The notes: generated by a model not told the origin, from the sequence alone. DNA of 64,000 bases from Candidatus Daviesbacteria bacterium (GCA_016187025.1 JACPKM010000001.1:171188-235187), one strand, 5' to 3'. Positions 14,979 to 54,519 are shown, numbered from the stretch's first letter. Numbers and translations: made by a program.

Positions 14979-14983
14979 TAAAA

Positions 14984-15433: not shown

Positions 15434-15616
15434 AAGTTTTCAACTTATAAATTAGATTATACCTTACTTTTTAATACAGTAGTGTTATTAATATAGTCTG
15501 TGGATATGTTAATAACAACTTTTTTCAGGTTCACCTTTCACCTTTTTTTCGTGTTAACGGCTTGTTGAGAAATTGTGGATAACTGGTGGAAAAAGTGGAT
15601 AACTGGTGGAAAAGTC
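15434..15616. promoter_or_regulatory. DnaA-box cluster / candidate oriC element downstream of dnaA
   Basis: TGTGGATAT at 15499-15507, TGTGGATAA at 15574-15582, and GTGGATAA again at 15595-15602. These sit within a direct repeat, gtggataactggtggaaaa, present twice (15576-15594 and 15596-15614). An AT-rich stretch at 15440-15540 is a possible unwinding element. Confidence 0.6.
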
Positions 15617-16930
15617 TTAAATCAACCTTTGCTTGATCTCGCCAATAACCCTTTGTATCTCCTTGTCACGAGAAAGCAGGGTTTTAATTTTGTCCCGGCC
15701 ATGCATAATAGTGGTGTGGTCCCTGCCTCCCAGCATCTGTCCCACTCTTTCTACAGTTATATTTAGTTCTTCGCAAAGAAGGTACATAGTAAGATGCCTT
15801 GGTAACACAAGCCCCTTTTGTCTTTTTGGACCAGTCAGATCTTTTTGGGAGATATCAAAATACTCGCAGATGGTTGTAAAAACCCTTTTTTGGTCGAAGC
15901 GGGTAATTCTTTGAGTTGAATCCTGTAAAAACGGACTAACATTTTGGATAGTTGGTGCCAGGTTTTGAGCGTGTAGCGCCTGAAGGATTTGAACCAATTT
16001 TCCCTCCAGCTCCCTGATATTAACATCTAAAGAAGAAGCCAGTTGCTTTAATACTTCCTCGGGTAACTCTTCATCTTTCTCTGCGCATTTAGCGCGCAAA
16101 ATCGCCACTCTGGTATCAAAATCCGGAGGTTGGATATCCAGCATCAACCCGCCGGCAAACCTGGATTTTAGACGATCTTCCAGTTTAACTATCTCGTGGG
16201 GAGTCCGGTCTGATGTTAAAACCATTTGAGCGTTTTTCCCCTGCAGCTCATTAAATGTATGGAAAAATTCTTCCTGAGTCCCTTCTCTGCCGGAAAAAAA
16301 TTGAATATCATCGATCAGCAAAAGGTCAATTGAACGGTATTTGTTCCTTAGCTCCCCCATTTTGTGTTGCTGGATTGCAGAGACGTAGTCATTCATAAAT
16401 TTTTCTGAGGAACAATAAATAACCTTTAAACGAGGCTTATTTTTTAAAAGAGCATGACCTATCCCAAGCATTAAATGTGTTTTCCCGACACCTGTTCCCC
16501 CATAAAGAAACAGGGGGTTATATGAGATGCCGGGGTTTTGTACCACTGCCTGGGCTGCAGCAAAAGCGACATTGTTTGATGGTCCAACCACAAAGTTTTC
16601 TAAAGTATATTTAGGATTTAATTGAAAAGCTGGGGCGGCAGGGGGCTGAAAAAAAACCTCTTCTGTAACTTCGGGCTTAGCTAAGTTTTCTTTGACCACA
16701 AATTCTACAACAACCTTTTTATTCAACATTCCTTCAAAGGTGGATTCAATTAAGGGTTTATGCCTTTGATTTAAAGTTTCTTTAATAAAGGCATTAGGGG
16801 TGGAAAGGATCACTTTATCTTCAGTGACCTCTTTTAAGCTGGTTTTTAAAAACCATGCCTTTAAATTGGCGCTGCTAACTTGAGGCTTAATAGTTTCCAG
16901 AAATCTATGCCAGAGCTTTAAATTATCCAT
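15617..16930 (-). CDS. dnaA: Chromosomal replication initiator protein DnaA
   Basis: AAA+ Walker A GGTGVGKTHLM, Walker B LLLIDDIQF, and the C-terminal DnaA-box-binding HTH (LTMYLLCEELNITVERVGQMLGGRDHTTIMHG). Confidence 0.95.
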   Translation of the reverse strand: MDNLKLWHRFLETIKPQVSSANLKAWFLKTSLKEVTEDKVILSTPNAFIKETLNQRHKPLIESTFEGMLNKKVVVEFVVKENLAKPEVTEEVFFQPPAAPAFQLNPKYTLENFVVGPSNNVAFAAAQAVVQNPGISYNPLFLYGGTGVGKTHLMLGIGHALLKNKPRLKVIYCSSEKFMNDYVSAIQQHKMGELRNKYRSIDLLLIDDIQFFSGREGTQEEFFHTFNELQGKNAQMVLTSDRTPHEIVKLEDRLKSRFAGGLMLDIQPPDFDTRVAILRAKCAEKDEELPEEVLKQLASSLDVNIRELEGKLVQILQALHAQNLAPTIQNVSPFLQDSTQRITRFDQKRVFTTICEYFDISQKDLTGPKRQKGLVLPRHLTMYLLCEELNITVERVGQMLGGRDHTTIMHGRDKIKTLLSRDKEIQRVIGEIKQRLI

Positions 16931-17086
16931 ATAGTAAATTTATTGTGGATAAGTCCACAAGAGTTATCCACAAAATAGTCTACACCTCCTTTTTTAGCAA
17001 GGTAGAGAAACTATTAAAAACTAGATCAATTTCTTAAACCAGGACCTTGCTATACAAAGATAGAATTTTCTGTTAATATTTATCTT
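16931..17086. promoter_or_regulatory. dnaA upstream region with convergent DnaA boxes / candidate oriC part; divergent rpmH promoter
   Basis: TGTGGATAA at 16944-16952 and TTATCCACA at 16964-16972 in inverted orientation. TTATCCATA overlaps the dnaA start. An AT-rich tract runs 17041-17086. Confidence 0.6.
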
Positions 17087-17224
17087 ATGCCAAAAAGGAC
17101 ATATCAACCCAAAGCAATTAAAAGAGTCAGAAAACATGGTTTTAGAGCCCGGATGCAAACCAAGGATGGTGCTAAAGTACTAAAACGCAGAAGAGCTGTG
17201 GGACGAAAGAGTTTAACTGTTTAA
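17087..17224 (+). CDS. rpmH: 50S ribosomal protein L34 (absent from ORF track, under 60 aa)
   Basis: Translates to [45 protein letters not shown]. Its stop overlaps the rnpA start (TAATG). Confidence 0.9.
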
Positions 17225-17586
17225 TGCTTCCTAAACAAAAAAGATTAAACCTCAAAAAAGATTTTAAATGGGTGGCAGAAGGAAAATCTGCTAGCAGTAA
17301 GAGCTTTAAATTATTTTACAGAGCTGGTGAGAATAGATTACCAAGGATTGGCATTGCCCTTTCTACTAAATATTTTAAAAAAGCCCATGATAGAAACAGG
17401 GCAAAAAGGTTGATGTCCCAAGCGTTTTGTGATACAAATCACAAACTACAAAATAATCTAAATATTGTAGCCCTTCCCAACTGGAGGGTGTTTGAGGTAA
17501 AATCTGATAGTTTAAAAAAAGAGTTAGAAGGTTTACTTGGAAAAGAAGGGTTGATAAATGAAAAAGATAACGCTGGTGCTAATTGA
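17224..17586 (+). CDS. rnpA: Ribonuclease P protein component
   Basis: Basic 120-aa protein immediately after rpmH. KRLNLKKDFKWV...RIGIALSTKYFKKAHDRNRAKRL is typical of RnpA. Confidence 0.9.
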   Translation: MLPKQKRLNLKKDFKWVAEGKSASSKSFKLFYRAGENRLPRIGIALSTKYFKKAHDRNRAKRLMSQAFCDTNHKLQNNLNIVALPNWRVFEVKSDSLKKELEGLLGKEGLINEKDNAGAN

Positions 17587-17758
17587 TTTTTATAGAATCT
17601 TTTTGTCTTTTGACAGGGGTATTTTGTCTTTACTTGCTCCAGGCGGCGCGTGCAAATATGCCCCGACCTGCTCACTTTATACAAAACAAATGATTGAAAA
17701 ATATGGTGTGTTGAATGGAGTAATAAAGGGGCTAAAAAGAATATTAAGCTGCAGATGA
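17558..17758 (+). CDS. yidD: Membrane protein insertion efficiency factor YidD
   Basis: GGACKYAPTCSLYTKQMIEKYGV is a YidD hallmark. It lies between rnpA and yidC. Confidence 0.8.
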   Translation: MKKITLVLIDFYRIFLSFDRGILSLLAPGGACKYAPTCSLYTKQMIEKYGVLNGVIKGLKRILSCR

Positions 17759-32383: not shown

Positions 32384-32665
32384 ATGTTAACAGTAAATAT
32401 AAGGGATTTATCCAGAAGCCCTAAGAGAATTCTTGAAGAGATTAAAAGAACTAAACAACCCAGACAGGTAGTCAGCCAAAGGAAACCTCAGGCAGTGATT
32501 GTGAGTCTAGAGGCTTTTAAGGATTTTGAAGAACTAAAAAGTAAGCAAAAACAGCAAGGGTCTGCTTTGGCACTACTAAAAATAGCCAAGATGGCAGATA
32601 AGCTAAAGGCTAAGGGCCCCAAAGATTTATCTGCTAACTTGGATAAATATACATGGGATGAGTAA
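32384..32665 (+). CDS. Phd/YefM-family type II antitoxin
   Basis: MLTVNIRDLSRSPKRILEEIKRTKQPRQVVSQRKPQAVIVSLEAFKDFEE matches the Phd/YefM N-terminal consensus. It overlaps the downstream PIN gene by 8 nt. Confidence 0.7.
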   Translation: MLTVNIRDLSRSPKRILEEIKRTKQPRQVVSQRKPQAVIVSLEAFKDFEELKSKQKQQGSALALLKIAKMADKLKAKGPKDLSANLDKYTWDE

Positions 32666-33098
32666 ATCACCAATAGTTGTTGTTGATAGTGATGGAATAG
32701 TTGCTCAGGGTAATTTGGCTGATTCCAACCACGAGACGGCTGTAAAAATAGCTGAAAAACTAATAGAGATTCAAGCAAAAGTTATCTATCCTTCCTGTAT
32801 AATTTTTGAATCTACTACAACAATGTCCAGAAAATTAAATAATCCTCAAATGGCAGCTGGAACTTTATCAGTGTTTGCTGATCCGAACATGATAATTGAA
32901 CCAATTGGCCAGGATATTATCGCTGGAGCCGCCAAATACTTTGATCCTAATGCCACTAAAAAGAATACGCCATTTGACTGTGTTGTGGTAGCAGTAGCCG
33001 ATAAATACAAAGCAGACTATATTTTTAGTTTTGATGCTTTCTATGTTAAAAAATATGGGTTTAAATTAGCAAAGGACCTGTTGTCTGGTAAACGTTAG
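32658..33098 (+). CDS. PIN-domain (VapC-like) toxin
   Basis: Acidic PIN residues: VVVDSDGIVA at the N-terminus and FDCVVVAVADKYKADYIFSFDAFY at the C-terminus. Confidence 0.7.
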   Translation: MSKSPIVVVDSDGIVAQGNLADSNHETAVKIAEKLIEIQAKVIYPSCIIFESTTTMSRKLNNPQMAAGTLSVFADPNMIIEPIGQDIIAGAAKYFDPNATKKNTPFDCVVVAVADKYKADYIFSFDAFYVKKYGFKLAKDLLSGKR

Positions 33099-33128
33099 CG
33101 GATATTAAGGTAATGTCACCTTATAACA

Positions 33129-33485
33129 CTACCCAATCCTGAATAAATTACGGACTCTTTGTAAAATCACCTTTTTAGTCTTGGTATTTAACTGCCCGGC
33201 AGTATCTTTAATAATAGATTCATCAGCTGTAAATAATTTATCCGGTCTGACATAACTTTCCACCGGTAAACCCCCGGTGGTAAAATCAGCTGTCTTAATC
33301 TGAATTGCTGTTTTGCTGGAATAAGGCTTTGAGGTAATTTGACACAAAATCAAATTCTCAAACTCTGCTTTTGCCAGAACCAAAGCTGGGCGGATTTTTT
33401 TACCCTTTAAATTTGAAAAGGGGAAGGTTACAAGAGCCACACTACCTACTCGTAGAGGAGCTTCGCTCACTGTAAACTTTTCCAT
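33129..33485 (-). CDS. mazF: MazF/PemK-family endoribonuclease toxin
   Basis: GSVALVTFPFSNLKGKKIRPALVLAK...CQITSK matches the MazF/Kid consensus. Confidence 0.8.
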   Translation of the reverse strand: MEKFTVSEAPLRVGSVALVTFPFSNLKGKKIRPALVLAKAEFENLILCQITSKPYSSKTAIQIKTADFTTGGLPVESYVRPDKLFTADESIIKDTAGQLNTKTKKVILQRVRNLFRIG

Positions 33486-33706
33486 GCCTCATCTTCTTCC
33501 GGTTTATTCCAATCATCCCCCAGTATTTTCTCTGATAGTAGCAAAGTGTCTTTTGCAGAAACTTTTTTTACAGGGGCTGCCACAATTCTGATCTCTCCTT
33601 TTTTAACCTGTAATTCAACCTCACTGCCTAACCCGCTCTCATTAAGAAGTGGTTTGGGAATCCTAACTCCCCGTGAATTTCCAATAGAAATTAGTGTCGT
33701 GATCAT
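33467..33706 (-). CDS. mazE: MazE/AbrB-type antitoxin
   Basis: SIGNSRGVRIPKPLLNESGLGSEVELQVKKGEIRIVAAP is a SpoVT/AbrB swapped-hairpin domain. It overlaps the mazF start. Confidence 0.75.
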   Translation of the reverse strand: MITTLISIGNSRGVRIPKPLLNESGLGSEVELQVKKGEIRIVAAPVKKVSAKDTLLLSEKILGDDWNKPEEDEAWKSLQ

Positions 33707-37401: not shown

Positions 37402-38493
37402 TTATCTGTCAATAGCCAAGGATAGGTTTGGATTGGCTTGAAGGGTTAATATATCTGGTGTAGGTTTTTGGTAATATGCTGCAGCGGCAATCATGGCTGC
37501 ATTGTCTGTACATAAATAGGGTGGTGGAACGTGTAGTTTCACTTTTAACTTTTCACTTTTAACTTTTAACTTGCGAACCAGTTCCTGGTTCGCCGCTACC
37601 CCTCCTGCAACAATAATTTGTTCAACTTCATACTTTTGGGCTGCTTTGACAGTCTTTATAACTAGGGAATCTATGATAGCAGCTTCCAAAGAAGCAGCCA
37701 GATCTTCTTTTTTGGCCCTAAGATCTTCTTTTAAGATGTTTGCAAAAGCGGTTTTGAGTCCTGAAAAAGAAAAGTCCAGATTTTTAGAATTCAGCATTGG
37801 CCGTGGAAAATTGAAAGCTTTAGGATCTCCTTTTTGGGCAAGTTTAGCAATTTGCGGGCCTCCGGGATAAGGGTATCCCAAAAGTCTGGCGCATTTATCA
37901 AAACACTCTCCTGCGGCATCATCCCTGGTTCCTCCTAAATACTCATATTTGCCATGCGAAGTAAACAAAACTAAATCAGTATGCCCTCCTGAGACCAGCA
38001 GGCCAAGGCAGGGAAATTTTGGCGAACTATTCCCAATCCAATTTGCATAAAAATGTCCTATTAAATGGTTTACAGGAATTAAAGGTTTGTTCCAAATATA
38101 AGCTAGAGTTTTGGCAGTTTCTACTCCAACAAGCAGAGAACCAATCAGTCCTGGTCCATATGTGACTGCTATTGCGTTGATATCCTGTCCCCTGTAACCT
38201 GAAACCTGTAAACTTTCCTGTATCACTGGAATAATAGATTTTAGCTGTTCCCTGGCTGCTTGCTCGGGAATCACACCACCATATTTTGCCTGTAAATCAG
38301 CTGATGAAGCCACTACATTGGATAAAATAGTTATCCGGTTATTTTCCTGTCTCAGGACCGCCGCGGCAGTCTCATCACAGGAAGTCTCTATCCCTAAAAT
38401 TGTTTTGTACATAAGCTGAATTTTAACAGATTTAGGGGGGAGAGTTACATTGTTCCCCAGGTGACGGTAGATAACCCTAAACTTTCCCCCCAC
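37402..38493 (-). CDS. tsaD: tRNA N6-adenosine threonylcarbamoyltransferase TsaD (Kae1/Gcp)
   Basis: N-terminal ILGIETSCDETAAAV, ASKH-fold motifs, and conserved His pair (HLIGHFY). The true start is MYKTILGIETS at about 38412; the ORF track extends further upstream in frame. Confidence 0.9.
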   Translation of the reverse strand: MGGKFRVIYRHLGNNVTLPPKSVKIQLMYKTILGIETSCDETAAAVLRQENNRITILSNVVASSADLQAKYGGVIPEQAAREQLKSIIPVIQESLQVSGYRGQDINAIAVTYGPGLIGSLLVGVETAKTLAYIWNKPLIPVNHLIGHFYANWIGNSSPKFPCLGLLVSGGHTDLVLFTSHGKYEYLGGTRDDAAGECFDKCARLLGYPYPGGPQIAKLAQKGDPKAFNFPRPMLNSKNLDFSFSGLKTAFANILKEDLRAKKEDLAASLEAAIIDSLVIKTVKAAQKYEVEQIIVAGGVAANQELVRKLKVKSEKLKVKLHVPPPYLCTDNAAMIAAAAYYQKPTPDILTLQANPNLSLAIDR

Positions 38494-38520
38494 CCGGGAG
38501 GTGAATTAGCTTGGCATCAC
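38478..38520. repeat. Copy 1 of a ~40-nt repeat (small hairpin + TTGACA/TTGGCA-like hexamer) upstream of tsaD
   Basis: cacccgggaggtgaattagcttggcatcac. Related copies at 41583-41625 and 42708-42760. Confidence 0.5.
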
Positions 38521-38539
38521 AAATACTGTAATGAATTGA

Positions 38540-39151
38540 CTAAAAACCCCGTCTAGGAAATTGTAGGTGCTTATCTAAATAAATCATTTTAGCGAGTGCT
38601 GCATAATCTTTGACCGATGAGTGATTTGATTGGCGGCTCCTTACCTGTAACTCCTCGGCTACTAGTAGATAATAATCAAGTCTAATGGGTGCTGTTTTCG
38701 GATTTCTTGTTTCCAAATCTGCAAAGATTTTATTAATCATCATGTAAACATTTCTATCACTTACCCATGGAACTAGTGAAGGGACTAATATTAATCTTGA
38801 TTGTTCAAAGGTATCCATTGCTCTCTGAGCCTGCTCTAAACCCTCAGTATCAATTCTGTGAAAAAAGACAAACAAATCAGCTCTTCCTGATTCCAAAGGC
38901 CCATCTGTTAGAAGAATATTCAATCTGGAATCAGCAGCTGATAGATCGGGAAGAAGCTGTACTGAGGTTTTATGATAATCTTCTAATAAGCGTTGCAATT
39001 TTGGGAAATTATGTCTGGATAAATCAACAACACCTGTTCTTACGTCTAGATTTGATAAGAGGCATGCAACATTTGCTAAAGTGGTTGTTCACCCTAAACC
39101 ACCACGCTCACTAATAAAAGACACCGTTTGAGGGGTACGTTCTATATACAT
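38540..39151 (-). pseudogene. ParA/MinD-like P-loop ATPase gene interrupted by an in-frame TGA at the Walker A lysine position
   Basis: ATG at 39151 gives MYIERTPQTVSFISERGGLG, then TGA at 39089-39091, then TTLANVACLLSNLDVRTGVVDLSRH...LNILLTDGPLESG. This aligns to the deviant Walker A xKGGxGK[ST]T with K replaced by a stop codon and the signature Lys replaced by Arg. The downstream ParA-like Walker B (DGP) is present. Confidence 0.5.
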
Positions 39152-39260
39152 AAGAGGGATTATATCAACAAATCAGATTAATATCAACTATAGGTTATTG
39201 TGAGCATTAGCAATTTTTTTGAAATTTCTTGCTTAGATAATCTCTGATACAATCTTATTT

Positions 39261-40004
39261 ATGGAATCAATCTGGATATTCATTGCAGCTTTTATTGCCA
39301 CAACTATAAGTGCCATGTCAGGAGGAGGTTCTTCAATAATTGCTGTTCCAATCTTTCTATCTATGGGAATTGTGTTGCCAATGGCCGTGGCGATACAATC
39401 CATAAGTGGTGTTTTTTGGGTGTTGCCGTCTGCATTTAATTATTTAAAGGGAAGAAAAATTGAGTGGATGTTTTTACTCCTTTTTGCAGGGATTGGAACA
39501 ATTGGTTCTTACTTCGGCGCACTTGCTATCACAAGTTTTGACCAAAAGCCCCTCGCGGCAATAGTCGGGCTGCTTATTTTATTTCTCATTGGATTCATGA
39601 ACTACCAAAAAAACCTTGGGTTACAAGAGCAACATGTTAGGTCAAAGTTTAAGGAAAGGCTTGCATACGTTTTCTCCTTCCCAATGGGATTTTATGAAGG
39701 ATTTTTTGGGTCAGGAAACGGCATTTTCTTTACGCTTGTTACAGCGTATACCAAGGGCTTTGATTTTATTGACGCGCTTGGCTATTACTATGCGGTTGCT
39801 TTTCCATGGGTTGTTGTTGGAGCACTTGTGTTGATCTCGAAGGGGTATTTTGATCTCTCGTTAATGGTGCCAGCAGTCTTAGGTTCTCTTGTTGGTGGTT
39901 ATATTGGATCTAAATATGCAAGATTGAAAGGAAATAAGTTTGTTAAAATAACTTTTACAATAATCGGTATTATTCTTGGTCTTAAACTATTATTAGGAAT
40001 ATAA
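39261..40004 (+). CDS. TSUP/TauE-SafE family (DUF81) membrane exporter-like protein
   Basis: 247 aa with about 8 TM. The N-terminus IAAFIATTISAMSGGGSSIIAVPIFLSMGI is typical of TauE/SafE. It has an internal duplication architecture. Confidence 0.75.
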   Translation: MESIWIFIAAFIATTISAMSGGGSSIIAVPIFLSMGIVLPMAVAIQSISGVFWVLPSAFNYLKGRKIEWMFLLLFAGIGTIGSYFGALAITSFDQKPLAAIVGLLILFLIGFMNYQKNLGLQEQHVRSKFKERLAYVFSFPMGFYEGFFGSGNGIFFTLVTAYTKGFDFIDALGYYYAVAFPWVVVGALVLISKGYFDLSLMVPAVLGSLVGGYIGSKYARLKGNKFVKITFTIIGIILGLKLLLGI

Positions 40005-40135
40005 TTTAAGAGTAAACCCAATTTACACCTTTTCTCTAACCCCTTAATTTCTCTTATCATCTTTAATCTCACTGCAAGATTACAGGAAGCGTAAGCAACT
40101 ATCCTACAACCCAACTTTTTGCTAAAATATTTTAG

Positions 40136-40573
40136 ATGAATACTCCAATATGTGGTTTGTGCGGGAAGAAAAGTAAACTTGTAAAAACCGACTGCTGTAA
40201 TAACTGGATCTGTAACGATGAAGGTAAATATGTGATTTTTTCGTATGCCAGAAATAGTTGCTCACGTAATCATCGGCGATTCACACTTTGTGGATATCAT
40301 AACACCGAGGATCACAAAAGCAACTGGAAAACATGTAAAAAGTGTGCTAATAGTTTTGATGCTGAAGATTATGCTTGGTACGGAACAAATGAATATAACT
40401 TCGAAAAGCTTCCTGACCCGCCTAAATTTGATCCGACCTATTGCTCTTTGTGCGGGGTTATAATCAACCGTGGAGAAGACGGATATACGCGACTACCCGA
40501 TGGGAAATTTCTGTGCGAATCGTGCGGATGGAAACATATGAATGAGCAAATAAAAGATGTTGAGAAGATATGA
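40136..40573 (+). CDS. Cys-rich multi-zinc-ribbon protein (hypothetical)
   Basis: Six CxxC-type pairs: C6/C9, C67/C70, C104/C107, C124/C127 and others. It overlaps the downstream RhuM gene by 4 nt. Confidence 0.45.
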   Translation: MNTPICGLCGKKSKLVKTDCCNNWICNDEGKYVIFSYARNSCSRNHRRFTLCGYHNTEDHKSNWKTCKKCANSFDAEDYAWYGTNEYNFEKLPDPPKFDPTYCSLCGVIINRGEDGYTRLPDGKFLCESCGWKHMNEQIKDVEKI

Positions 40574-41565
40574 AAAAAGAAATTAAAAAATCGCAAATTG
40601 CCATTTACCAGGTAATTGGCGATAAGCAAAAAATCCGAGTCAGAATTGAAGACGAGAATGTGTGGCTGACGCAAAAATTAATAGCTGAGCTTTTTGATGT
40701 TGATGTGCGTACGGTGAACGAACATTTAAAAAATATATTTTCGGAGGTAGAACTGGATGAAAGTTCAGTTATCCGGAAATTCCGGATAACTGCCGATGAT
40801 GGTAAGACATATGACACAAAACATTATAATTTAGATACGATTTTGGCAGTTGGTTATCGTGTGCGATCTGAGCAGGGAACGCAGTTTCGCAAATGGGCAA
40901 CAGAAAGACTGCGGGAATATCTTATCAAAGGGTTTACACTGGATGACGAACGACTTAAGCAAGGTGGTGGCAGGGCTCGTTACTTTCAGGAATTACTGCA
41001 GCGGGTACGTGATATCCGTAGCAGTGAGCGGATGTTTTATCAGAAAGTAACAGATATTTACGCAACGAGCATTGATTATAAACAAGAGGCACAGCTTACT
41101 CAGAAGTTTTTTGCTACAGTGCAGAATAAAATGCACTTTGCAGTACACGGACATACGGCAGCCGAGATTATAAATAAGCGAGTGGATAGTAAAAAACCAT
41201 TGATGGGTCTGATGAGTTTTAAAAGCGATTATATAACCGCTGACGATATAGTAGTGGCTAAAAATTATTTAAGTGAAAATGAACTCAATCAATTAAATAT
41301 GATCGTTTCGCTATATATTGATTTTGCGGAGTTGCAAGCAAGCAGCGGCCGTCTTATGAAAATGCAGGATTGGATCAACAAACTGGACGAGTTTTTAGCT
41401 ATTAGTGAAAAGAAATTACTTCACAGTTCCGGCAGGGTGAGCGCAAAACAGGCAGAAAAGAAAGCATTGGTGGAATATGAGAAGTATCGCAGAGAACGGG
41501 ATGGAAAATATATTTCAGATTTCGACCGCGAAGTGAAAAAACTTTTGAAGAGAGCAAGGAAATAA
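40570..41565 (+). CDS. rhuM: RhuM-family (virulence-associated, Fic-neighbourhood) DNA-binding protein
   Basis: Strong match to the RhuM family as I recall it: GTQFRKWATERLREYLIKGFTLDDERLK, IRSSERMFYQKVTDIYATSIDY, FFATVQNKMHFAVHGHTAAEII, AKNYLSENELNQLNMIVSLYIDFAE. Confidence 0.8.
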   Translation: MKKEIKKSQIAIYQVIGDKQKIRVRIEDENVWLTQKLIAELFDVDVRTVNEHLKNIFSEVELDESSVIRKFRITADDGKTYDTKHYNLDTILAVGYRVRSEQGTQFRKWATERLREYLIKGFTLDDERLKQGGGRARYFQELLQRVRDIRSSERMFYQKVTDIYATSIDYKQEAQLTQKFFATVQNKMHFAVHGHTAAEIINKRVDSKKPLMGLMSFKSDYITADDIVVAKNYLSENELNQLNMIVSLYIDFAELQASSGRLMKMQDWINKLDEFLAISEKKLLHSSGRVSAKQAEKKALVEYEKYRRERDGKYISDFDREVKKLLKRARK

Positions 41566-41582
41566 ATGATTAAATTATCGGT

Positions 41583-41625
41583 GAAATCCCACCCGGAGGG
41601 TGTATTAGCTTGACACCTGTCATCT
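41583..41625. repeat. Copy 2 of the ~40-nt repeat, followed by a duplicated tsaD 5' fragment (41640-41697)
   Basis: gaaatcccacccggagggtgtattagcttgacacctg. Then ctaaaattattttgtacataagctgaatttta (41660-41697) is near-identical to the tsaD start region at 38395-38432. It would encode MYKIILGVETSCDETAAIR* on the minus strand. Confidence 0.5.
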
Positions 41626-41904
41626 TATCGCTGCAGTTTCATCACAACTGGTTTCAACCCCTAAAATTATTTTGTACATAAGCTGAATTTTATTAGATAG
41701 CTGCAAGTTACTGACGGACAACTTTACTTATTGGTGATTCTTTTTCTGTCATGGTCATGTTGCAGATTATATCAGAGAGCAATAGTCTTACCAAATGCAA
41801 TCATCAGGGGAGGCCTTTTGTGCAACGATTATAGGGCAAAATCTGGGAGTTCTCAAGCAAGCACTATGAAATAGGATTAAAGCTAAATTTAATCGCTAAT
41901 TCAG

Positions 41905-42381
41905 GTGGAAGTTGTGGGTATGTTTATCAATGTCTGGACGAAGAGCAAAAATCCTGATAAATTACCTTTCATGTCGCAATTAGAACAATTAGGACTATAT
42001 ACTTTTGATTTTGAAGAAGTACATGGAGATACTCCTCCTGGTCAAGAAATTTTGCCTCAAGAGTATCTACTCGGTACCCCAAATCCTAAAACTCTAATCA
42101 AACAAGCCGGAATGAGACTTTACCGCCATCTTTGGCATACAGATGAAGTAGATTTATTAACAGATGCTCAAAAAAGAGGTAAAGATGTGGTAGCTTATGT
42201 GGCCTCACATGGTAATGTGTTGATGATTGCAGTTGGTGCAGCAGCTTTGGCTGTAGTAATCTACAATGGTTTTGTTTTTTATAAACATCATAGAGAAGAA
42301 AAGGAGCAAAAAGCATTACCTTCTCCAAAACCCCTTGCGCCTACACCACTGCCCTTAGCAAGAAGAATCAGAGAGCGTTAA
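41905..42381 (+). CDS. Hypothetical protein with C-terminal TM
   Basis: 158-aa ORF. Hydrophobic segment LMIAVGAAALAVVIYNGFVFY. No motif recognised. Confidence 0.3.
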   Translation: MEVVGMFINVWTKSKNPDKLPFMSQLEQLGLYTFDFEEVHGDTPPGQEILPQEYLLGTPNPKTLIKQAGMRLYRHLWHTDEVDLLTDAQKRGKDVVAYVASHGNVLMIAVGAAALAVVIYNGFVFYKHHREEKEQKALPSPKPLAPTPLPLARRIRER

Positions 42382-42707
42382 TTTCTCCTGAGTAATTCAG
42401 GTTATCAGTCTACTGAAGTAAATTTATACAGGTTTAGGAACTAATTTACCAAATGAAACAGCTGGCTTAACAACTGGTTGAGCTTTCCTTATACCTTTAC
42501 CCATCTCCCATAACTCTAACCATAGAATTCTTTCTACTTGATCATCCCTACCTATCCCTTTCAAAGCGGATAATAGTACCAACGGGATATCTTGTAGCAA
42601 CAAACAACTCTCCTTCTGCCAATATTCTGGTGCGAGTCTATAATCACCTGCCTCTAATCTAGCCACGGACATATTTATACACATTTTATAGATTTTAAAC
42701 AAATTAG

Positions 42708-42760
42708 AATGAAATCCCACCTGGTGAAATCCCACCTGGGAGGTGGATAGCCTGGCACCT
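42708..42760. repeat. Copy 3 of the ~40-nt repeat with internal tandem duplication
   Basis: gaatgaaatcccacctggtgaaatcccacctgggaggtggatagcctggcacct. Confidence 0.5.
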
Positions 42761-42818
42761 AGGGATTTTGGGAATTGTTTGTATTTAAATCTTTGTAGCT
42801 TTACCTTATACTTCCTTT

Positions 42819-43679
42819 ATGATCAAAAACAGCAATAATCATTCAATTGAGCTAAAAGATGGCAGAAGATTAGGGTATGCAGAGTTTGGAGATAGAGACG
42901 GAAAACCGTTGTTTTTCTTTCACGGCTGGCCAAGCTCAAGGTTACACGGCCAAAGGTTTGAAGAAGCTGCAAGGAAGCTTAAAGTAAGGATCATATCTTT
43001 AGATAGACCCGGGTTTGGATTATCTGATTATAAAAAAGACCGCACACTTTTGGATTTTCCAAAAGATGTTTTAGAGCTTGCAGATTATTTAAAGATTACA
43101 AAGTTTGCCATTTTAGGTGTTTCTGGCGGCGGACCATATGCAGCCAGTTGTGCATATAGTATCCCGCAAAGAATTGCCAAAGCAGGTATTATGGTGGGAC
43201 TTGGGCCAACAAATATTAAAGGAAATTTAGATGGAATAGGTTTAGTAAATAAATTTGGCTGGGCAAATTATCACAAATTTCCTCTATTAAGATATATATC
43301 CTCATTTTTAGGATGGTTTGAAACAAAGTTTTTGAAAACTAACCTTTACTCACTATTTATCTCTAGATCCGATAAATTGTTAACAACAGACTCTTTTAAG
43401 GAGTTAACCTACATGTCTAGACTGGAAGCTTTTAAACAGGGTTTTAAAGCAGCAGCCTTAGATCTAAAGCTTTATACAGACAACTGGGGCTTTGATTTGA
43501 AAAAGATTAAGGTACCGGTATTGTTATGGTTTGGGGATTCAGATAAAAGTGTTTCTGTTAATATGGGAAAATACTTTGCATCCCAAATCCCCAATAGTAA
43601 ACTTACCATTTACCATAAAGAAGGCCACTATCTTCATGTCAATCATGCAGAGCAAATATTAAAACAGTTGACCCAGTAG
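42819..43679 (+). CDS. Alpha/beta-hydrolase fold enzyme (proline iminopeptidase/epoxide-hydrolase-like)
   Basis: LFFFHGWPSS oxyanion region, nucleophile elbow GVSGGG, C-terminal His (HYLHVNHAE). Confidence 0.75.
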   Translation: MIKNSNNHSIELKDGRRLGYAEFGDRDGKPLFFFHGWPSSRLHGQRFEEAARKLKVRIISLDRPGFGLSDYKKDRTLLDFPKDVLELADYLKITKFAILGVSGGGPYAASCAYSIPQRIAKAGIMVGLGPTNIKGNLDGIGLVNKFGWANYHKFPLLRYISSFLGWFETKFLKTNLYSLFISRSDKLLTTDSFKELTYMSRLEAFKQGFKAAALDLKLYTDNWGFDLKKIKVPVLLWFGDSDKSVSVNMGKYFASQIPNSKLTIYHKEGHYLHVNHAEQILKQLTQ

Positions 43680-43703
43680 GAAACAGATCTCCCAAAATAA
43701 TAT

Positions 43704-43988
43704 TTGACAAATTCTTTGTATTGTTATAAACTTATCCTTGTTATGCAAACAACAATATCAATTACCAGTAAATGGCAGATTCATATTCCCAAGGCTGCAA
43801 GAGAGGCTTTGGGGCTTAAAAAACCCGGTATGGTAGAGTTAAAGTCCAAAAAAGGAGAAATCATTATCACCCCCCGCAAAAAAGGTATTTTACATTACGC
43901 CGGTAAATATCATTATTTGATTAATAAGAAAACAAAGAAGATTAATATAGATAAGATCAGGGACTATATTGATTATTCTGATCTATGA
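43704..43988 (+). CDS. AbrB/SpoVT-type antitoxin (VapB-like)
   Basis: ISITSKWQIHIPKAAREALGLKKPGMVELKSKKGEIIITP is a swapped-hairpin antitoxin domain. The likely true start is at the internal Met (about 43743). It overlaps the PIN gene by 4 nt. Confidence 0.6.
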   Translation: MTNSLYCYKLILVMQTTISITSKWQIHIPKAAREALGLKKPGMVELKSKKGEIIITPRKKGILHYAGKYHYLINKKTKKINIDKIRDYIDYSDL

Positions 43989-44401
43989 AGAAAGTTTTTA
44001 TAGACACCAATTTATGGGTCAGATTTTTTATTTGTGATATTAAAGATCAATTTGAGGTAACAAAAAAACTTTTGGAGAATATAGAAGAAGGGAGTTTTAA
44101 AGCCTACACCTCAACCATTGTTCTTCTGGAACTGCAGTTTGTTCTGCAAAGACTCTATCATCTTTCTTTTGAGGGTATACTTGATGTTTTTGATATAGTA
44201 CGGAAAACACGTAATATCACCATAATTGAAAAAACTAATTTTGATTTGGCATTAAAATTCTATCAGCAACATAAAATCAAGTTTCCTGACTGTTTGATCG
44301 CCTCGCAACTACCCAAAGATGCTACTCTAATCAGTTTTGATGAAGAGTTAGGTAAAATTTCAGAAGTTATCACAAAAAAACCGCAGGATTTACTAAATTA
44401 G
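43985..44401 (+). CDS. vapC: PIN-domain toxin VapC
   Basis: MKKVFIDTNLWVRFF (first Asp), LELQFV (Glu), FPDCLIASQLPKDATLISFDEEL (C-terminal Asp). Confidence 0.75.
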   Translation: MKKVFIDTNLWVRFFICDIKDQFEVTKKLLENIEEGSFKAYTSTIVLLELQFVLQRLYHLSFEGILDVFDIVRKTRNITIIEKTNFDLALKFYQQHKIKFPDCLIASQLPKDATLISFDEELGKISEVITKKPQDLLN

Positions 44402-44596
44402 CTTCTTTTCCATTGATCAGAGTGGGGGTTTGGTTGTAGGAAAAACTTTATCTCCTAATGAGGTTATTGTACTACGAACCTCTGTTCCCACTCAAAACTT
44501 AGCTGAGATACAAAGAAGATCTAACTCGTTATAAAAACCCTAGCCGCAGCTTAAGTTACCTATTGTGGTATACTCCAGCAATAAAATTAAAGTACT

Positions 44597-45178
44597 ATGG
44601 ATGAACGCTTAAGATCGGCTCCTCCTAAAGGATCAATACCCGAGAGTACATCACTTGATCAGCTCAGACAGCAGGAAAGAGCAGGCCGAGTGTCAGGATT
44701 TACACCCAGGAGGCCAATTAGATCAGGAACATCAGAGCCTGAATTTCGCTTCGATCCTGGACAACATAGATTTCCAACTGATTTAGCAATAAGATCAACT
44801 TTTCAGGATAGACCTGCAATAGAAAAATTAAATTTTTGGGCGGATGTAGTTGCTTGCGGTGATCGTCTATCTGTAGTTTTAGGGTTTAATGGGGTTAGTT
44901 TAGGGCAGGGCCCTTTTTGGAGAGGACGGGTTAATGATCCATTAATTAGCGCTGCTTGTTTTACGCCAGTAGAGCTTGAGGGAAGGAGGGCTACATTATG
45001 GTTGGTCGTAACAGGAGATATTATTGAAGCAACAGTCATACCAACCCGCAGACGCGATGGTCCTCCTCGTGGAGGAGAGTTGTATGTAGATGTATTAACA
45101 GCCGAATACGATCCAGCCAAAATGGCTGTTTCCAAACGAGATGGTCGGGTATACGCCGGCTTCGAACGCTGTAGCTAG
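44597..45178 (+). CDS. Hypothetical protein (GC-richer, Arg/Pro-rich)
   Basis: 193-aa ORF with no recognised domain and compositionally atypical. Confidence 0.3.
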   Translation: MDERLRSAPPKGSIPESTSLDQLRQQERAGRVSGFTPRRPIRSGTSEPEFRFDPGQHRFPTDLAIRSTFQDRPAIEKLNFWADVVACGDRLSVVLGFNGVSLGQGPFWRGRVNDPLISAACFTPVELEGRRATLWLVVTGDIIEATVIPTRRRDGPPRGGELYVDVLTAEYDPAKMAVSKRDGRVYAGFERCS

Positions 45179-45247
45179 TATAATTCTCTTAAGTAATTTT
45201 TACCAAGTTTTATCTAATTCCTAATACTTAAAGCATATATAGTCTTC

Positions 45248-46084
45248 ATGGATCTTAAAAATTATGGTTATTTTGGGCCGGATAGCATGGCTTGGAGGGT
45301 TTGGCGGGAAAGGATTCAGCTTTTAGGCGGGAGCAGAGCGATTATTCTGCAGCTTTCCCACCCTTTAGTAGCAGCAGGGGTGGCAAAATATTCAAGCTTT
45401 CAAAAAGACCCTTTAGGCAGGCTTAACAGGACTTTAGATATTATGCAAACTATAGTATTTGGCAGCAAATCAGAAGCTGATGCAGCTTTAGAAAAACTAG
45501 ACCATGTCCACAAACATGTTAAAGGGGTACTCCCGCATAAGATGGGCAAGTTTGATAAAGGGACCTATTATAAGGCAAATGATCCGTATTTAAAGTTGTG
45601 GGTGCACGCTACCTTAATAGATACCAGCCTATTAGTCCATGAGCTTTTTGTTAAATATTTATCTAAAAGCGAAAAAGAGCAGTTTTATACAGAGAGCAAG
45701 TTACTGGCAGAGCTTTTAGGGGTTTCTAAAAATATTATCCCCCAAAAATTAGAAGATCTCCTAGGCTATATGTATGATATGTATAAAAAAAAGGTGATAG
45801 TACCAACTCTAGAGTCCAAACAAGAGGTAGAGGATATATTGGACCCCAAGATACCCTTAGGGCTCAAACCAGCCTTACCCTTTGTAAAGTTTATTACCTC
45901 CGGGTTGTTGCCAAGTTTTTTGCGTGAGGGCTACGGATTAAAATGGGAAAAATCTGATGAGTTAAAACTAAAAGGTGTGGCAAAAGCGGTGCGTACGCTC
46001 CTGCCTTTTGTTCCGGAGCAGATCAGGTTTACTCCATATTACAGATCAGCTTTCAGCTCTCGCTCATTGCCCCATATAATTTAG
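45248..46084 (+). CDS. MpaB/DUF2236-family (ER-bound-oxygenase-like) protein
   Basis: FGPDSMAWRVWRERIQLLGGSRAIILQLSHPLVAAGVAKYS matches the DUF2236 N-terminal consensus. A His-rich region follows (HVHKHVKG). Confidence 0.6.
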   Translation: MDLKNYGYFGPDSMAWRVWRERIQLLGGSRAIILQLSHPLVAAGVAKYSSFQKDPLGRLNRTLDIMQTIVFGSKSEADAALEKLDHVHKHVKGVLPHKMGKFDKGTYYKANDPYLKLWVHATLIDTSLLVHELFVKYLSKSEKEQFYTESKLLAELLGVSKNIIPQKLEDLLGYMYDMYKKKVIVPTLESKQEVEDILDPKIPLGLKPALPFVKFITSGLLPSFLREGYGLKWEKSDELKLKGVAKAVRTLLPFVPEQIRFTPYYRSAFSSRSLPHII

Positions 46085-46133
46085 TGAAGTTTATTACTGA
46101 TATATTTGCAGAAATCATTTTACTATTAAATTA

Positions 46134-46850
46134 GTGAGAAGGTTTCATCTTATACTGACAGGACTTTCTTTAAATATTATCCTTTTATCTTTAAATAGGT
46201 TAACTGAGTTTACTCAAGGTTATCTTCAGCCCTTTGAGTTTTTAAGGTGGTTGGATTTTAATGCCATGCTACCTATACCACTTTTGTCTGTTTTACTCTA
46301 CTATCTTTTAAGAAAAGAGGTGCTTTATGACAGCCCTTTTTCTAAATCCACTCTTTATATAATTTTAGCTTTAATTTTTATTGCCGGGGTGTACTTTTTT
46401 GGAGCAGGATCAGGTGACCATGAGGTGACAAACTATCTAAACAGTAGGTTTTGTCAGGCTGGCAGGGTAGATAGCCCGATCTGCAATATCATCTCTTTTA
46501 ATGATGACCAGTTTAGCCACTATGTTTATTATTTAGGTTTTGTACTTTTAAATATCTCCTTGATGTTTTTAGAGCACTTTTATCCAAGAAAAGATAGTGT
46601 TTTTAAAATAGATTTAATACTGATTGTTGCAAATAGTCTTTTTATAGCTGCTGGGATTTTTGCCAACCTGGCTTTCGAGGAGGCAGTTATTGATCTGGTT
46701 GTTTTCTCATCGGTCATGATTCTGGCTCTTTACCTGCTTATTTTTACCCAAAGAAAGCTTACCTGGCTGCCGGTGACGTTTTATTTTGCCTTATCTTATA
46801 CACTAGGGGTGTTAGCAACATTATTATATAAACTTAGCAACCTTTTTTAA
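46134..46850 (+). CDS. Polytopic membrane protein (hypothetical)
   Basis: 238 aa, about 6-7 TM, no motif recognised. Confidence 0.4.
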   Translation: MRRFHLILTGLSLNIILLSLNRLTEFTQGYLQPFEFLRWLDFNAMLPIPLLSVLLYYLLRKEVLYDSPFSKSTLYIILALIFIAGVYFFGAGSGDHEVTNYLNSRFCQAGRVDSPICNIISFNDDQFSHYVYYLGFVLLNISLMFLEHFYPRKDSVFKIDLILIVANSLFIAAGIFANLAFEEAVIDLVVFSSVMILALYLLIFTQRKLTWLPVTFYFALSYTLGVLATLLYKLSNLF

Positions 46851-46919
46851 GATCAATTTTTAAATCTTGGCTATTGCTTTAATGTAATCTCAGTCTTACA
46901 ATCTTTTCTAACTTAAACT

Positions 46920-47621
46920 ATGGCTGAAACAGTATTGAGCAGAACAGATACCCTTTCCTATTTATTTAAAGCTTCCTACGGCATATTTAATAGAGCAATG
47001 GACATTCTTAATGGTCCTCAAAGAGGGGAAATGTCTGCAGAAAGAGGTTTAGCAGATCCAGCTTGGGGCCAATATGGAAGGCTGGCTATGGATGGGTTTA
47101 GGTTTACCTATCAACAAGGACGCGACGGCGCTGACCCCTTAAGGTTTTTGAGAGCTACTACCAGACCAGGCGAGATGCCCCAAGTGCATAAACAAGAAAG
47201 AGGTAACACAGGTACTTTTCCTGCTGATGTTGCTCCCCCAAACCTTCACAGAGTTAGCAGGGCGTTAGAGATTTTTTACCACTCTTTGGCAACACTTTCC
47301 GTATTAAGTAGCAGGGGAAGGGTGCGTTTGGGTGATTTTCATACGGCCGGAGTTTTTGATGATGAGAGAGGTGATGTTTTTAGAGTCTTTACTGACTGGC
47401 AGAGAAACTACACCGGTGAAGGGCTATGGGGTACATTAAAAGCCCTTGATCATACGGTCAGGTTAGTTTTGCTTTCCCCTGAGCTTGTAACTACCCCAGC
47501 AGATCATTACCGGGTTTATGAAGCTGCTTGCTTTTTTGCAGCAGGAAGGCAACTCCTTACTAATCCCAGGATAGAGGAAAGTGAACGGGAGATGGTAAAA
47601 AGAATGTTGGGGAAAAGATAA
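46920..47621 (+). CDS. Hypothetical soluble protein (GC-richer, Arg-rich)
   Basis: 233-aa ORF. No domain recognised. It lies immediately upstream of a Cas4/RecB-like nuclease gene. Confidence 0.3.
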   Translation: MAETVLSRTDTLSYLFKASYGIFNRAMDILNGPQRGEMSAERGLADPAWGQYGRLAMDGFRFTYQQGRDGADPLRFLRATTRPGEMPQVHKQERGNTGTFPADVAPPNLHRVSRALEIFYHSLATLSVLSSRGRVRLGDFHTAGVFDDERGDVFRVFTDWQRNYTGEGLWGTLKALDHTVRLVLLSPELVTTPADHYRVYEAACFFAAGRQLLTNPRIEESEREMVKRMLGKR

Positions 47622-47672
47622 TAGTAGGAAAATAATCTTTCCTATTGAACTAAAGCTGCTAATAGTTGTACT

Positions 47673-48530
47673 TTGGAGTATGTGGTTCCCTCGTCTAAGA
47701 ATGAGTATATTAAAAATGCCCTGTTTATCTCTTATACTTCCTTGTCTGATTTTATCAAATGCCCGCGCTCCTTTTATCTAAAACACGTTTATAGAGATCC
47801 CCAAAAAGGTTATAAACTGCAAATAATCTCGCCCTTTCTTACCTTAGGAAGTACTGTACATGACACTATCAAATGGTATTTAGAGGCTCCTACCAAGCCT
47901 ACCAGAGAGCAAACCCTGGCAAAATTCAGAAACTTTTGGAGAAAATACCGTTTGCAAAAAGGGGGTTTTAACTCTTTGGAAGAAGAGGTAAGTTATGGTC
48001 AGAGAGGACTTAAAATGTTGGAAAATTTCTTAGAAAACGCCGAAATTTTGGAGCCCTGCGCCCCTTTTGTAAGTTTTCCCAAATTCAGACTGGTAGACAA
48101 TATTATTTTAATGGGGAATTTTGATTTTGTAGGGCAGTGCAGTGACGGCAGTTTGCATATAGTTGATTTTAAAACAGGTGCAAAAGATGAAAATGACAGT
48201 TTACAGCTGCATATTTATGCAATTTTGGCAGAGGCCAATTTCCAAAAACCGGTTTCCAAAATCTCTTTTTGGTATTTAGACAGGGAATCCGGTCCTAGAG
48301 AAGTAGTACTGGATTCTTTAGAACCGAAAATAGATTGGTTAAAGCAAAAGGGATTAGAGATGAAAAAGGCTCTACAAGAAGACAGCTGGGTTTGCAAGGA
48401 TAGCTCTAAAGGCACTCTCTGCAGGGATTGTAGCAGTTATCAGATGATCTTAGACGGCAAAGCCCAGTTTTTGTTTCAAGACTACCGTTATAAAAAATTG
48501 ATATATTTTTTGCGAATTGATGACTCTTAA
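47673..48530 (+). CDS. PD-(D/E)xK nuclease of the Cas4/RecB-like family (stand-alone) with a Cys cluster
   Basis: N-terminal Cys (FIKCPRSFYLKH). Core HIVDFKTG (D-x-K), QLHIYAIL. C-terminal C-x8-C-x2-C (CKDSSKGTLCRDC) is compatible with a Cas4/AddB-type FeS cluster. No cas genes are nearby. Confidence 0.5.
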   Translation: MEYVVPSSKNEYIKNALFISYTSLSDFIKCPRSFYLKHVYRDPQKGYKLQIISPFLTLGSTVHDTIKWYLEAPTKPTREQTLAKFRNFWRKYRLQKGGFNSLEEEVSYGQRGLKMLENFLENAEILEPCAPFVSFPKFRLVDNIILMGNFDFVGQCSDGSLHIVDFKTGAKDENDSLQLHIYAILAEANFQKPVSKISFWYLDRESGPREVVLDSLEPKIDWLKQKGLEMKKALQEDSWVCKDSSKGTLCRDCSSYQMILDGKAQFLFQDYRYKKLIYFLRIDDS

Positions 48531-53637: not shown

Positions 53638-54519
53638 TTAAGTTTAATGTGCCATTTTCCCAAATACCCCAGATGATATGAGTCTAAATAAAGACAGGTG
53701 GGATTTTACTTAGGTTGACAATCCCAATCATGGTTTGAGTTTAGGTAGGAATTGGCAGACATGGGAAAGAAAAGATCTGGAGTACGATCTAGTAGATATT
53801 AATGAGATTAAGTAAGAAGTAGCTATTCAGTTGTACTTCAAAGTCAAAAGATGACTTTTTCCAGATTAGATGTATAATATTTAACTATGGGAAAAGAAGG
53901 ATTAGTACGTACATATGTATTGCCAGCAGACGCTATGACGCTTTCTCCTGATCAAAGGAAACAAGTTCTCATTAAGGCTGCAAGAGAAGCTGTTATGCCT
54001 TTTGAGCCGGTTTTAACAGCTAGATATGGGTCGAGAGTTCCTGTCTCAGGACGTTGTAGATTTTGGCAAATACCGTCTTGCCCTGTAAAATTAAATGAAT
54101 CCACACCATCAGCAACTTCTGGATAAAATTAAAATTGACATAGAGTATTGGGCTTTCTCTTTAAATTATTATGACCGTGTAATATTTCGTTTTATTGTAC
54201 CTTCGAAATACCACGAGTTTACACTCGTGGATGAAGGAAGTTCCAACAAAGTCGGACTCACCGAAGGTGAGAACAAGAAGATACCACATGTGTAAGCTTG
54301 TGGTAGATTCATTAGTAACAGTGAGGTATTATTTCATAGGATTGGCAGTCATGATATATATAAATAATGAGATTCAAAATTGATTCAAAAATTTTTGAGG
54401 AGTTTGATGGACTAAAAATTTGAAAACTTAATTGTGAATCCAACTGAGAAAGTCGAAGATCTTTGTGGTGGGGAGGTAAAGTGGCATATTCTAAATGAAC
54501 AAAACCAAGATGTCGAAAT

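Follow-up and report, generated by a model that had tools for sequence, protein, structure and literature searches.

Repetitive extragenic palindromic (REP) sequences associated with a transposase are known from E. coli (REP/RAYT, TnpA-REP) and, as REPIN-RAYT systems, from Pseudomonas (PMC3479197; PMC3116915; PMC5581495). The E. coli-type REP carries a conserved GTAG tetranucleotide 5' of the hairpin foot (PMC3479197), and the gene for the REP-associated tyrosine transposase (RAYT) occurs once in each genome and is vertically inherited (PMC5581495). A repeat of comparable design was identified in 64,000 nt of Candidatus Daviesbacteria DNA (GCA_016187025.1 JACPKM010000001.1:171188-235187; hereafter the window, with positions counted from its first nucleotide), where three copies (REP A, REP B and REP C) lie near the 5' end of tsaD together with a second, truncated tsaD start (tsaD'). 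The three copies are solo REPs. Judged from sequence, the repeat and a ~224-aa gene that adjoins it in other genomes form a REP/RAYT-type system, for which no description in this phylum was found in the literature searched. We propose, with a probability of about 0.72, that the motif is a mobile REP with an HUH transposase, that ~9 kb beside tsaD constitute a hotspot, and that tsaD' is an old recombination scar between diverged lineages.

The likeness to described REP/RAYT systems comprises an imperfect palindrome of short length whose flanking bases are conserved and whose copies are dispersed chiefly in intergenic DNA; an HUH/Y1-class transposase that has an HUH motif and a predicted catalytic Tyr; inverted repeats that bracket the transposase gene in a layout already described (PMC5581495; PMC3479197); and a gene neighbourhood that is the same in three genomes. 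The system differs in its host, a lineage of Patescibacteria (Candidate Phyla Radiation, CPR), in a 12-nt invariant arm (TAGCTTGRCACC) after the hairpin, and in that some copies are translated inside genes. Insertion sequences of the IS200/IS605 family (IS608, ISDra2) share the same transposase fold, as the top PDB matches of the structure model suggest. They have subterminal hairpins with an end ~10 nt 3' of the hairpin foot, resembling the 10 nt from CACCT to the REP B/tsaD' junction, and their left end carries the transposase promoter, as the repeat here seems to. By contrast, the gene here seems fixed in position rather than multi-copy, its flanking repeats are inverted (L001, L024, L036) rather than direct, and solo repeats far outnumber it.

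Two further classes of repeat share features with the locus. Rickettsia palindromic elements (RPEs) are palindromic repeats that lie in frame in protein genes and add a short peptide while the protein stays intact; the in-frame copies of the present repeat are similar, but span 14-15 codons rather than 30-50 and have an identifiable partner transposase. In the attL/attR junctions of phages and integrative and conjugative elements, and in integron attC arrays, direct repeats at gene ends flank accessory DNA, a displaced gene fragment is kept, and repeats follow cassette genes. The window resembles an attL/attR arrangement in that the target core is directly repeated, over 70 nt, at either end, and differs from it in lacking an integrase and in that the repeat also occurs far from such junctions. 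The inverse core and core sites of attC (RYYYAAC ... GTTRRRY) are both missing from the repeat consensus, and no integrase was found in the open reading frames (ORFs) scanned from 27.8 to 53.6 kb.

A dispersed repeat and its partner transposase

One genome per species (185,579 species, 596 Gb) was scanned with the strict 21-position pattern CCCACC-N5-GGTG-N-A-N(0,1)-TAGCYTGRCA, giving 39 matches in 38 DNA stretches against a chance estimate of ~2 for 596 Gb. All 39 are in metagenome-assembled genomes (MAGs) of Ca. Daviesbacteria/Patescibacteria or in MAGs titled 'uncultured Gammaproteobacteria'; viral contigs gave no match to the motif. The latter titles look wrong for at least some loci, and one contig so titled (L008) is 96-100% identical to the window. 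The assembly CAZKCV holds four loci with the strict pattern, several copies per genome were seen, and a profile built from 39 repeat copies finds extra copies in the 8-kb loci, often as pairs ~750 nt apart. The original prediction for this stretch had interpreted the motif as an attL/attR-like arm; instead, it is a lineage-wide repeat, dispersed in Ca. Daviesbacteria and related Microgenomates, that elsewhere brackets a RAYT-like gene.

The consensus (~42 nt) reads WT-CCCACC-Y-NNN-R-GGTGG-A-N-TAGCTTG-R-CACCT-NNN-CTTTT, and conservation extends to positions outside the search pattern (CCT at +28 to +30, CTTTT at +34 to +38). The proposed small hairpin is real as a conserved palindrome: over 45 copies, 96% of cells pair in the 6-bp stem CCACCY/RGGTGG, next to which TAGCTTGRCACC is invariant. 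From this alignment, the hairpin appears to behave as a conserved palindrome that is recognised as sequence. Because the stem is nearly invariant, covariation is uninformative on RNA structure; single-sequence folding gives Z-scores near zero for copies A and B, and a longer second stem pairs no better than shuffled controls.

Within the window, the profile recovers REP A, REP B and REP C, all on the plus strand (E = 2e-8, 1e-11 and 6e-8, respectively; Table 1), and no further copy in the 64 kb. Dinucleotide shuffling of the window produced no match to a 28-nt pattern and, for the 14-nt hairpin, 0.02 matches on average. The third copy has a tandem duplication (TGAAATCCCACCTGG twice, 42710-42739), as originally described. 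REP A is antisense to a ParA-like pseudogene, whose stop codon is 24 nt away, and is located 77 nt upstream of the tsaD ATG; REP C sits between divergent genes, and REP C with the adjoining hydrolase start is kept at 96% in the independent contig L008. The motif as a tRNA fragment and as a known RNA family were both ruled out, as ARAGORN found no tRNA in the window and Rfam gave no match there at gathering score. A sigma-54 reading of TGGCAC was rejected by eye, half of the copies carrying TTGACA. The REP 5' half is partly duplicated in tandem, or two copies adjoin, at L025:74-135, L007:1406-1484 and window 42710-42739; the recurrence of such arrangements in different genomes suggests slippage or abortive processing at the hairpin. 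A possible decayed remnant (TGTCAAC...AAAATCCCACCTGTCTTTATTT), below the profile threshold, lies on the minus strand at 53680-53720, in the intergenic region after a solute-binding protein gene.

The ~224-aa gene adjoins the motif in six loci (L001, L019, L024, L027, L029 and L036) and is located between two copies in five of them, the sixth (L027) showing one flank because the gene is cut by the contig end. In L001, L024 and L036, the upstream copy is ordered hairpin then arm and the downstream copy arm then hairpin, with the conserved arms pointing towards the gene; the upstream copy in L019 and L029 has arms on both sides of one hairpin. The protein matches Pfam Y1_Tnp at 32-36 bits (cutoff 23), and its sole NCBIfam match is REP_Tyr_transpos (REP-associated tyrosine transposase, NF047646; E = 7e-11 to 2e-14). 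The HUH motif (NHFHF) and the Tyr motif (SRYIHLNP) fall in invariant columns, with H90-F-H92 and Y150 invariant in 33 sequences. For the predicted structure, the 30 best fold matches in the PDB are Y1 transposases without exception, among which the REP-bound E. coli RAYT (4er8) aligns longest. There are >7,900 homologues, the named ones from Daviesbacteria, Levybacteria and other Microgenomates, annotated only as 'transposase', and many of them are on very short contigs. L019, L029 and L036 share a neighbourhood (large upstream gene, small ORF, transposase gene, 91-aa ORF), which looks like vertical inheritance; L024 differs. Of these, L019 bears the 'uncultured Gammaproteobacteria' title, as do L025 and L032, and shares its neighbourhood with the Daviesbacteria loci L029 and L036; the RAYT-like gene family is carried by L019, L001, L027 and L024.

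Four of the RAYT loci (L001:3199-3260, L019:4400-4500, L024:5315-5385 and L029:2500-2600) contain TTGACA, 17 nt, TAnnnT, 6 nt and ATG, with TTGACA 29 nt before the ATG. The -35 box of the leaderless promoter that the transposase gene itself uses probably comes from the REP arm; this would explain the perfect -35 hexamer in the motif. This recurrent spacing, together with eight copies located 30-90 nt upstream of a same-strand start codon, is what could be said for the TTGACA motif being, more generally, a -35 box with a regulator-binding hairpin for downstream genes. We give this explanation very little credence. The window hexamers (TTGACA/TTGGCA) are absent from the predicted promoters in all three copies, none paired with a -10 box at sigma-70 spacing (16-18 nt downstream), an arrangement present only upstream of transposase genes in other genomes; promoter-like sites in the window are not enriched (10 found vs. 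13.9 expected). The hexamer's proposed role in a promoter was not upheld for the window. Copy A, moreover, points into the 3' end of a convergent pseudogene, and many copies are found where genes converge, downstream of a tRNA or within ORFs. A genome-wide search, which the original prediction held would reveal a generic promoter or operator if the motif occurred beside unrelated genes, did place it beside unrelated genes, but the conclusion is a mobile REP element.

The contexts of the repeat are diverse: a same-strand stop codon precedes 13 copies by 2-42 nt, an opposite-strand stop codon is present within 40 nt of 13, five are located between convergent genes, and one (L038) is 17 nt after a tRNA-Gln called by ARAGORN. 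ARAGORN called none of the additional tRNA-like sequences beside REPs in L017 and L025, which contig ends truncate. In four cases, the stop codon of an opposite-strand gene falls within the motif, by our reading as the TAA of AGCTAATCC. Because copies occupy stop-codon, convergent, tRNA-adjacent and in-gene contexts, readings of the motif itself as an att arm, an operator or a simple promoter are excluded. A lineage-specific terminator or mRNA-stabilising hairpin as the primary function would accord with the approximately two-thirds of copies that lie within ~40 nt of a stop codon in either orientation, and with the CTTTT tail that follows a second possible stem. Nevertheless, such a function is very unlikely: stems are only 5-6 bp, covariation is absent, the 12 conserved unpaired bases would be superfluous for termination, copy C lies between divergent genes, and some copies are in frame inside essential genes. 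The extended second hairpin as an intrinsic terminator was likewise rejected, its pairing being no better than that of shuffled controls.

Four copies sit in frame within genes, with the Pfam domains of these genes running on past the copy on either side (Table 1). These copies are always read in one frame, antisense to the motif, and encode (K/R)xxG(V/A)KL(I/V)H(P/L)PGG, for example the loop GVKLIHPPGG; orthologues of tRNA-guanine transglycosylase (TGT) occur both with and without the REP-encoded loop. A second variable insert, PGVELKLHPRGV (alignment A4, columns 128-150; TGT of L013 and P0243), resembles the REP-encoded peptide and may be an older, decayed in-frame REP.

The tsaD boundary and its accessory island

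The repetition of the tsaD start, originally noted over 38 nt, is a longer direct repeat of 70 nt (38362-38431 and 41629-41698; 83% identity) with an exact 23-nt run, TTTTGTACATAAGCTGAATTTTA. On the minus strand, the second copy encodes a diverged, truncated TsaD N-terminus (MYKIILGVETSCDETAAIR*), as first read. Both starts have an unusual MYK extension, which more distant relatives lack. The coding parts differ at 10 of 51 nt, including a serine codon switch from TCC to AGT, with just two amino-acid changes, both conservative; pS is 0.56 and pN 0.10, a bias matched by random substitution in 0.03% of trials. Because the differences are mostly synonymous, tsaD' is a second allele rather than a decaying local copy, one that evolved inside the working tsaD of a related lineage and that recombination either introduced or displaced; the same bias rules out a duplication in situ with subsequent decay. 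The earlier suggestion of a recombination scar is supported. No second tsaD start was seen in the relatives L039-L041, and a metagenome scan with the 23-nt core gave no matches. tsaD itself is seemingly leaderless, with TGTTAAAAT 7 nt before the ATG (38404-38428); in L008 (1440-1472), the stop codon of an upstream 402-aa ORF falls within the tsaD -10 box.

The DNA upstream of tsaD is accessory, and the island proposed there is real, although it extends over ~9.2 kb (38413-47672) and not 4.3 kb. Its far boundary is a PDDEXK_1 nuclease gene that has 51-57% amino-acid identity to genes adjoining tsaD in L039-L041. In L041, PDDEXK_1 and tsaD are divergent and 20 nt apart, and the window's genes for a solute-binding protein, VanW, LigT, PDDEXK_1, TsaD and a class I aminoacyl-tRNA synthetase have orthologues there in collinear order; L039 and L040 have other genes inserted between PDDEXK_1 and tsaD, which agrees with the placing of a recombination hotspot at the tsaD 5' end. 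An empty site had been anticipated at which the alpha/beta hydrolase gene would directly follow tsaD; the empty site exists in L041, but there tsaD adjoins PDDEXK_1. None of the island ORFs has a homologue in L039-L041. L008 derives from an organism nearly identical to that of the window; there, one unrelated 402-aa gene takes the place of the 4.3 kb between two shared parts, the hydrolase start together with REP C (96%) and the tsaD start, window 38379-38433 matching the final 55 nt of that contig at 100% identity. GC composition does not differ between the island and its flanks.

Table 1. Coordinates of the features discussed; positions are those of the window unless a locus number precedes them.
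Feature	Position	Strand	Remarks
tsaD, intact	37402-38412	-	336 aa; Pfam TsaD, 316 bits; 100% identical to protein named TsaD by NCBI
Live tsaD 5' end, copy 1 of 70-nt direct repeat	38362-38431	-	extended -10 box TGTTAAAAT, 7 nt, ATG, codons 1-17
Whole accessory island	38413-47672		~9.2 kb; between tsaD and PDDEXK_1 nuclease gene
Mosaic segment between tsaD-start copies, REP A to REP B	38432-41628		3.2 kb (3.27 kb)
REP A, degenerate	38487-38528	+	hairpin CCCACC-CGGGA-GGTG, arm ATTAGCTTGGCA, tail diverged; profile/pattern match 38489-38518, 32 bits, E = 2e-8
ParA-like pseudogene	38540-39151	-	weak ParA/AAA_31 Pfam match
TauE	39261-40004	+	Pfam
Zn-ribbon protein	40136-40573	+	weak Pfam match
RhuM	40570-41565	+	Pfam
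REP B, best-preserved copy (CCCACCCGGAGGGTGTATTAGCTTGACACCTGTCATCTTAT)	41585-41628	+	profile match 41585-41627, 43 bits, E = 1e-11
tsaD' fragment, copy 2 of 70-nt direct repeat	41629-41698	-	-10 box, ATG, 17 codons (MYKIILGVETSCDETAA), truncated at REP B
Segment tsaD' to REP C	41699-42709		two hypothetical ORFs
Hypothetical ORF	41905-42381	+	no Pfam family; no homologue in any locus fetched
Hypothetical ORF	42424-42735	-	no Pfam family; no homologue in any locus fetched
REP C	42710-42769	+	tandem 15-nt duplication of 5' half, 1-nt arm deletion; profile match 42728-42769, 31 bits
Alpha/beta hydrolase	42819-43679		Pfam
MazE-like/PIN toxin-antitoxin pair	43704-44401		in island
MpaB/Lcp-like oxygenase	45248-46084		in island
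PDDEXK_1 nuclease gene, conserved far boundary	47673-48530	+	Pfam PDDEXK_1, 74 bits
In-frame REP, tRNA-guanine transglycosylase (TGT, tgt)	L013:5005-5046	antisense to motif
In-frame REP, M1 aminopeptidase (pepN)	L014:6192-6235	antisense to motif
In-frame REP, RibD_C protein	L033:4039-4081	antisense to motif
In-frame REP, GT2-GT2 fusion	L012:6271-6312	antisense to motif

The original gene calls are supported by Pfam (TsaD, TauE, RhuM and the hydrolase; ParA-like and Zn-ribbon weakly), and the island also holds three hypotheticals. The listed start of the ORF at 42424-42735, which runs into REP C, is probably too far upstream. The ParA-like pseudogene has TGA (39089-39091) in place of the lysine of its Walker A box (GGLG*TTT); a promoter-like site at 39187-39159 is intact. 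RhuM is the sole gene of the 3.27-kb segment with close homologues elsewhere (80-89% identity, up to 84% at the DNA level), and DNA homology to other organisms stops at 41576-41580, a few bases before REP B. Among 80 loci with RhuM relatives, there is no REP and no homologue of the neighbouring genes. This rules out the segment as a conserved mobile module, and its reading as one element gives way to a mosaic, in which RhuM appears, from these comparisons, to behave as a single-gene transfer unit. One DNA match (window 40564-41580, 84% identity to L092:5995-7004) ends at the gene borders, and the L092 RhuM is flanked by a different palindrome (CCCGATTTTATCGGG).

The order of core and repeat is swapped between the two tsaD starts (core...repeat vs. 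repeat...core), as the original prediction described, and this arrangement would also arise if a circular element with the tsaD 5' end as its att site had integrated, giving attL (core plus REP A) and attR (REP B plus core'), and its integrase had then been lost. In keeping with that origin, 3.2 kb of accessory genes, one of them a dead ParA-like gene, lie between the 70-nt direct repeats, which share an identical run of 23 nt; the cores are diverged alleles, as expected of host and element copies; and core' joined to the tsaD body is in frame, so that an element-borne copy would restore the essential gene. L008 also has different DNA against tsaD at the same point, and the three versions of the upstream region that were compared diverge from about that point, ~22 nt before the ATG. 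We nonetheless consider a decayed integrative element unlikely. Neither the segment nor the ORFs scanned between 27.8 and 53.6 kb yielded an integrase or recombinase domain, in agreement with the earlier observation that an integrase is missing; the supposed arm sites belong to a dispersed REP family in unrelated contexts; the segment is a mosaic whose RhuM relatives never occur with its neighbours or the repeat; L039-L041 are without a second tsaD start; and the explanation offers no recurring element and no specific role for the repeats.

An assembly artefact at the repeat is exceedingly improbable, even though the source is a MAG and the RAYT homologues are often on very short contigs, as repeats that break assemblies would produce. 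At 40-70 nt and with only 68-86% identity, the repeats are unlikely to cause mis-joining of reads; the independent co-assembly L008 reproduces both outer junctions (REP C/hydrolase and tsaD promoter); and the synonymous-biased divergence of the tsaD starts is biological.

Other features of the window were noted. Three type II toxin-antitoxin pairs (Phd/PIN, MazE/PemK and MazE-like/PIN) are encoded at 32384-33706 and 43704-44401, one of them in the island. Cumulative GC skew is lowest at 16-17 kb (13878-17600), beside ORFs resembling dnaN and dnaA by their N-termini, and this is probably the replication origin; if so, all three window REPs are on one replichore in the same orientation. Across loci, the orientation of the repeat relative to replication, judged by GC skew, shows a weak bias (22 vs. 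9 loci, p = 0.03), with the window copies in the minority orientation.

Proposed mechanism and implications

Several observations weigh against a mobile REP with a partner transposase and a recombination scar at tsaD. No RAYT homologue is present in the 64-kb window. The transposase, longer here at 224 aa, scores 42-54 bits against the 80-bit equivalog cutoff of NF047646, and because it falls below that cutoff, it represents a distant branch rather than the curated equivalog; its structure model is of moderate quality (pLDDT 67). The GTAG of E. coli is missing, with WT 5' of the hairpin and GCTAn before the hairpin on the antisense strand, so the repeat is of a different REP class. Copy number appears low, the 64 kb holding only three copies, all inside the island, vs. 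hundreds for classical REPs; most copies occur as singlets and do not form REPIN doublets, and five of 45 carry, on their 5' side, a partial arm in inverted orientation (GGTGTCAA). L008 and the window have identical live tsaD starts, so either allele may be the one that came in. Finally, that the transposase itself made the REP B/tsaD' junction is speculation; a tyrosine-recombinase event with later loss of the integrase would leave the same topology.

By analogy with E. coli TnpA-REP and IS608 TnpA, the RAYT would bind the REP hairpin in single-stranded DNA, cut and rejoin nearby, and so move these REPs. Accessory genes have accumulated between tsaD and the PDDEXK_1 gene, which are adjacent in a relative. 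Most likely, DNA from a related lineage underwent recombination at this long-standing hotspot, with homology within or beside tsaD as its anchor; one 5' end would have been kept or received by the intact gene, and the -10 box and 17 codons of the other allele would have been left as a dead fragment. The putative break point is the 3' edge of REP B, against which tsaD' directly begins at 41629. We infer that recombination, and not a site-specific integrase, made this junction. In a more far-reaching version, the REP/RAYT system of these streamlined genomes would be a gene-shuffling device and more than selfish DNA: cutting by the RAYT ~10 nt 3' of the arm, followed by strand transfer, would have made the REP B/tsaD' joint, REPs would mark the seams where single-gene units such as RhuM join hotspots, and essential proteins would tolerate the same element as a loop of 14-15 residues. 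This version we regard as unlikely.

The identification of a REP/RAYT-type repeat system in CPR bacteria bears on genomes that are small and gene-dense, in which a persistent mobile repeat is informative about the tolerance and exchange of DNA. The repeat apparently gives its own transposase a -35 box, and if it does carry that promoter, self-regulation would be possible; it sometimes also provides stop codons, as well as in-frame inserts in tgt and pepN. It explains contig breaks in MAGs of this group and is a possible lineage marker. With its two tsaD alleles, the tsaD/PDDEXK_1 hotspot would constitute direct evidence of recombination between diverged lineages of uncultivated bacteria.

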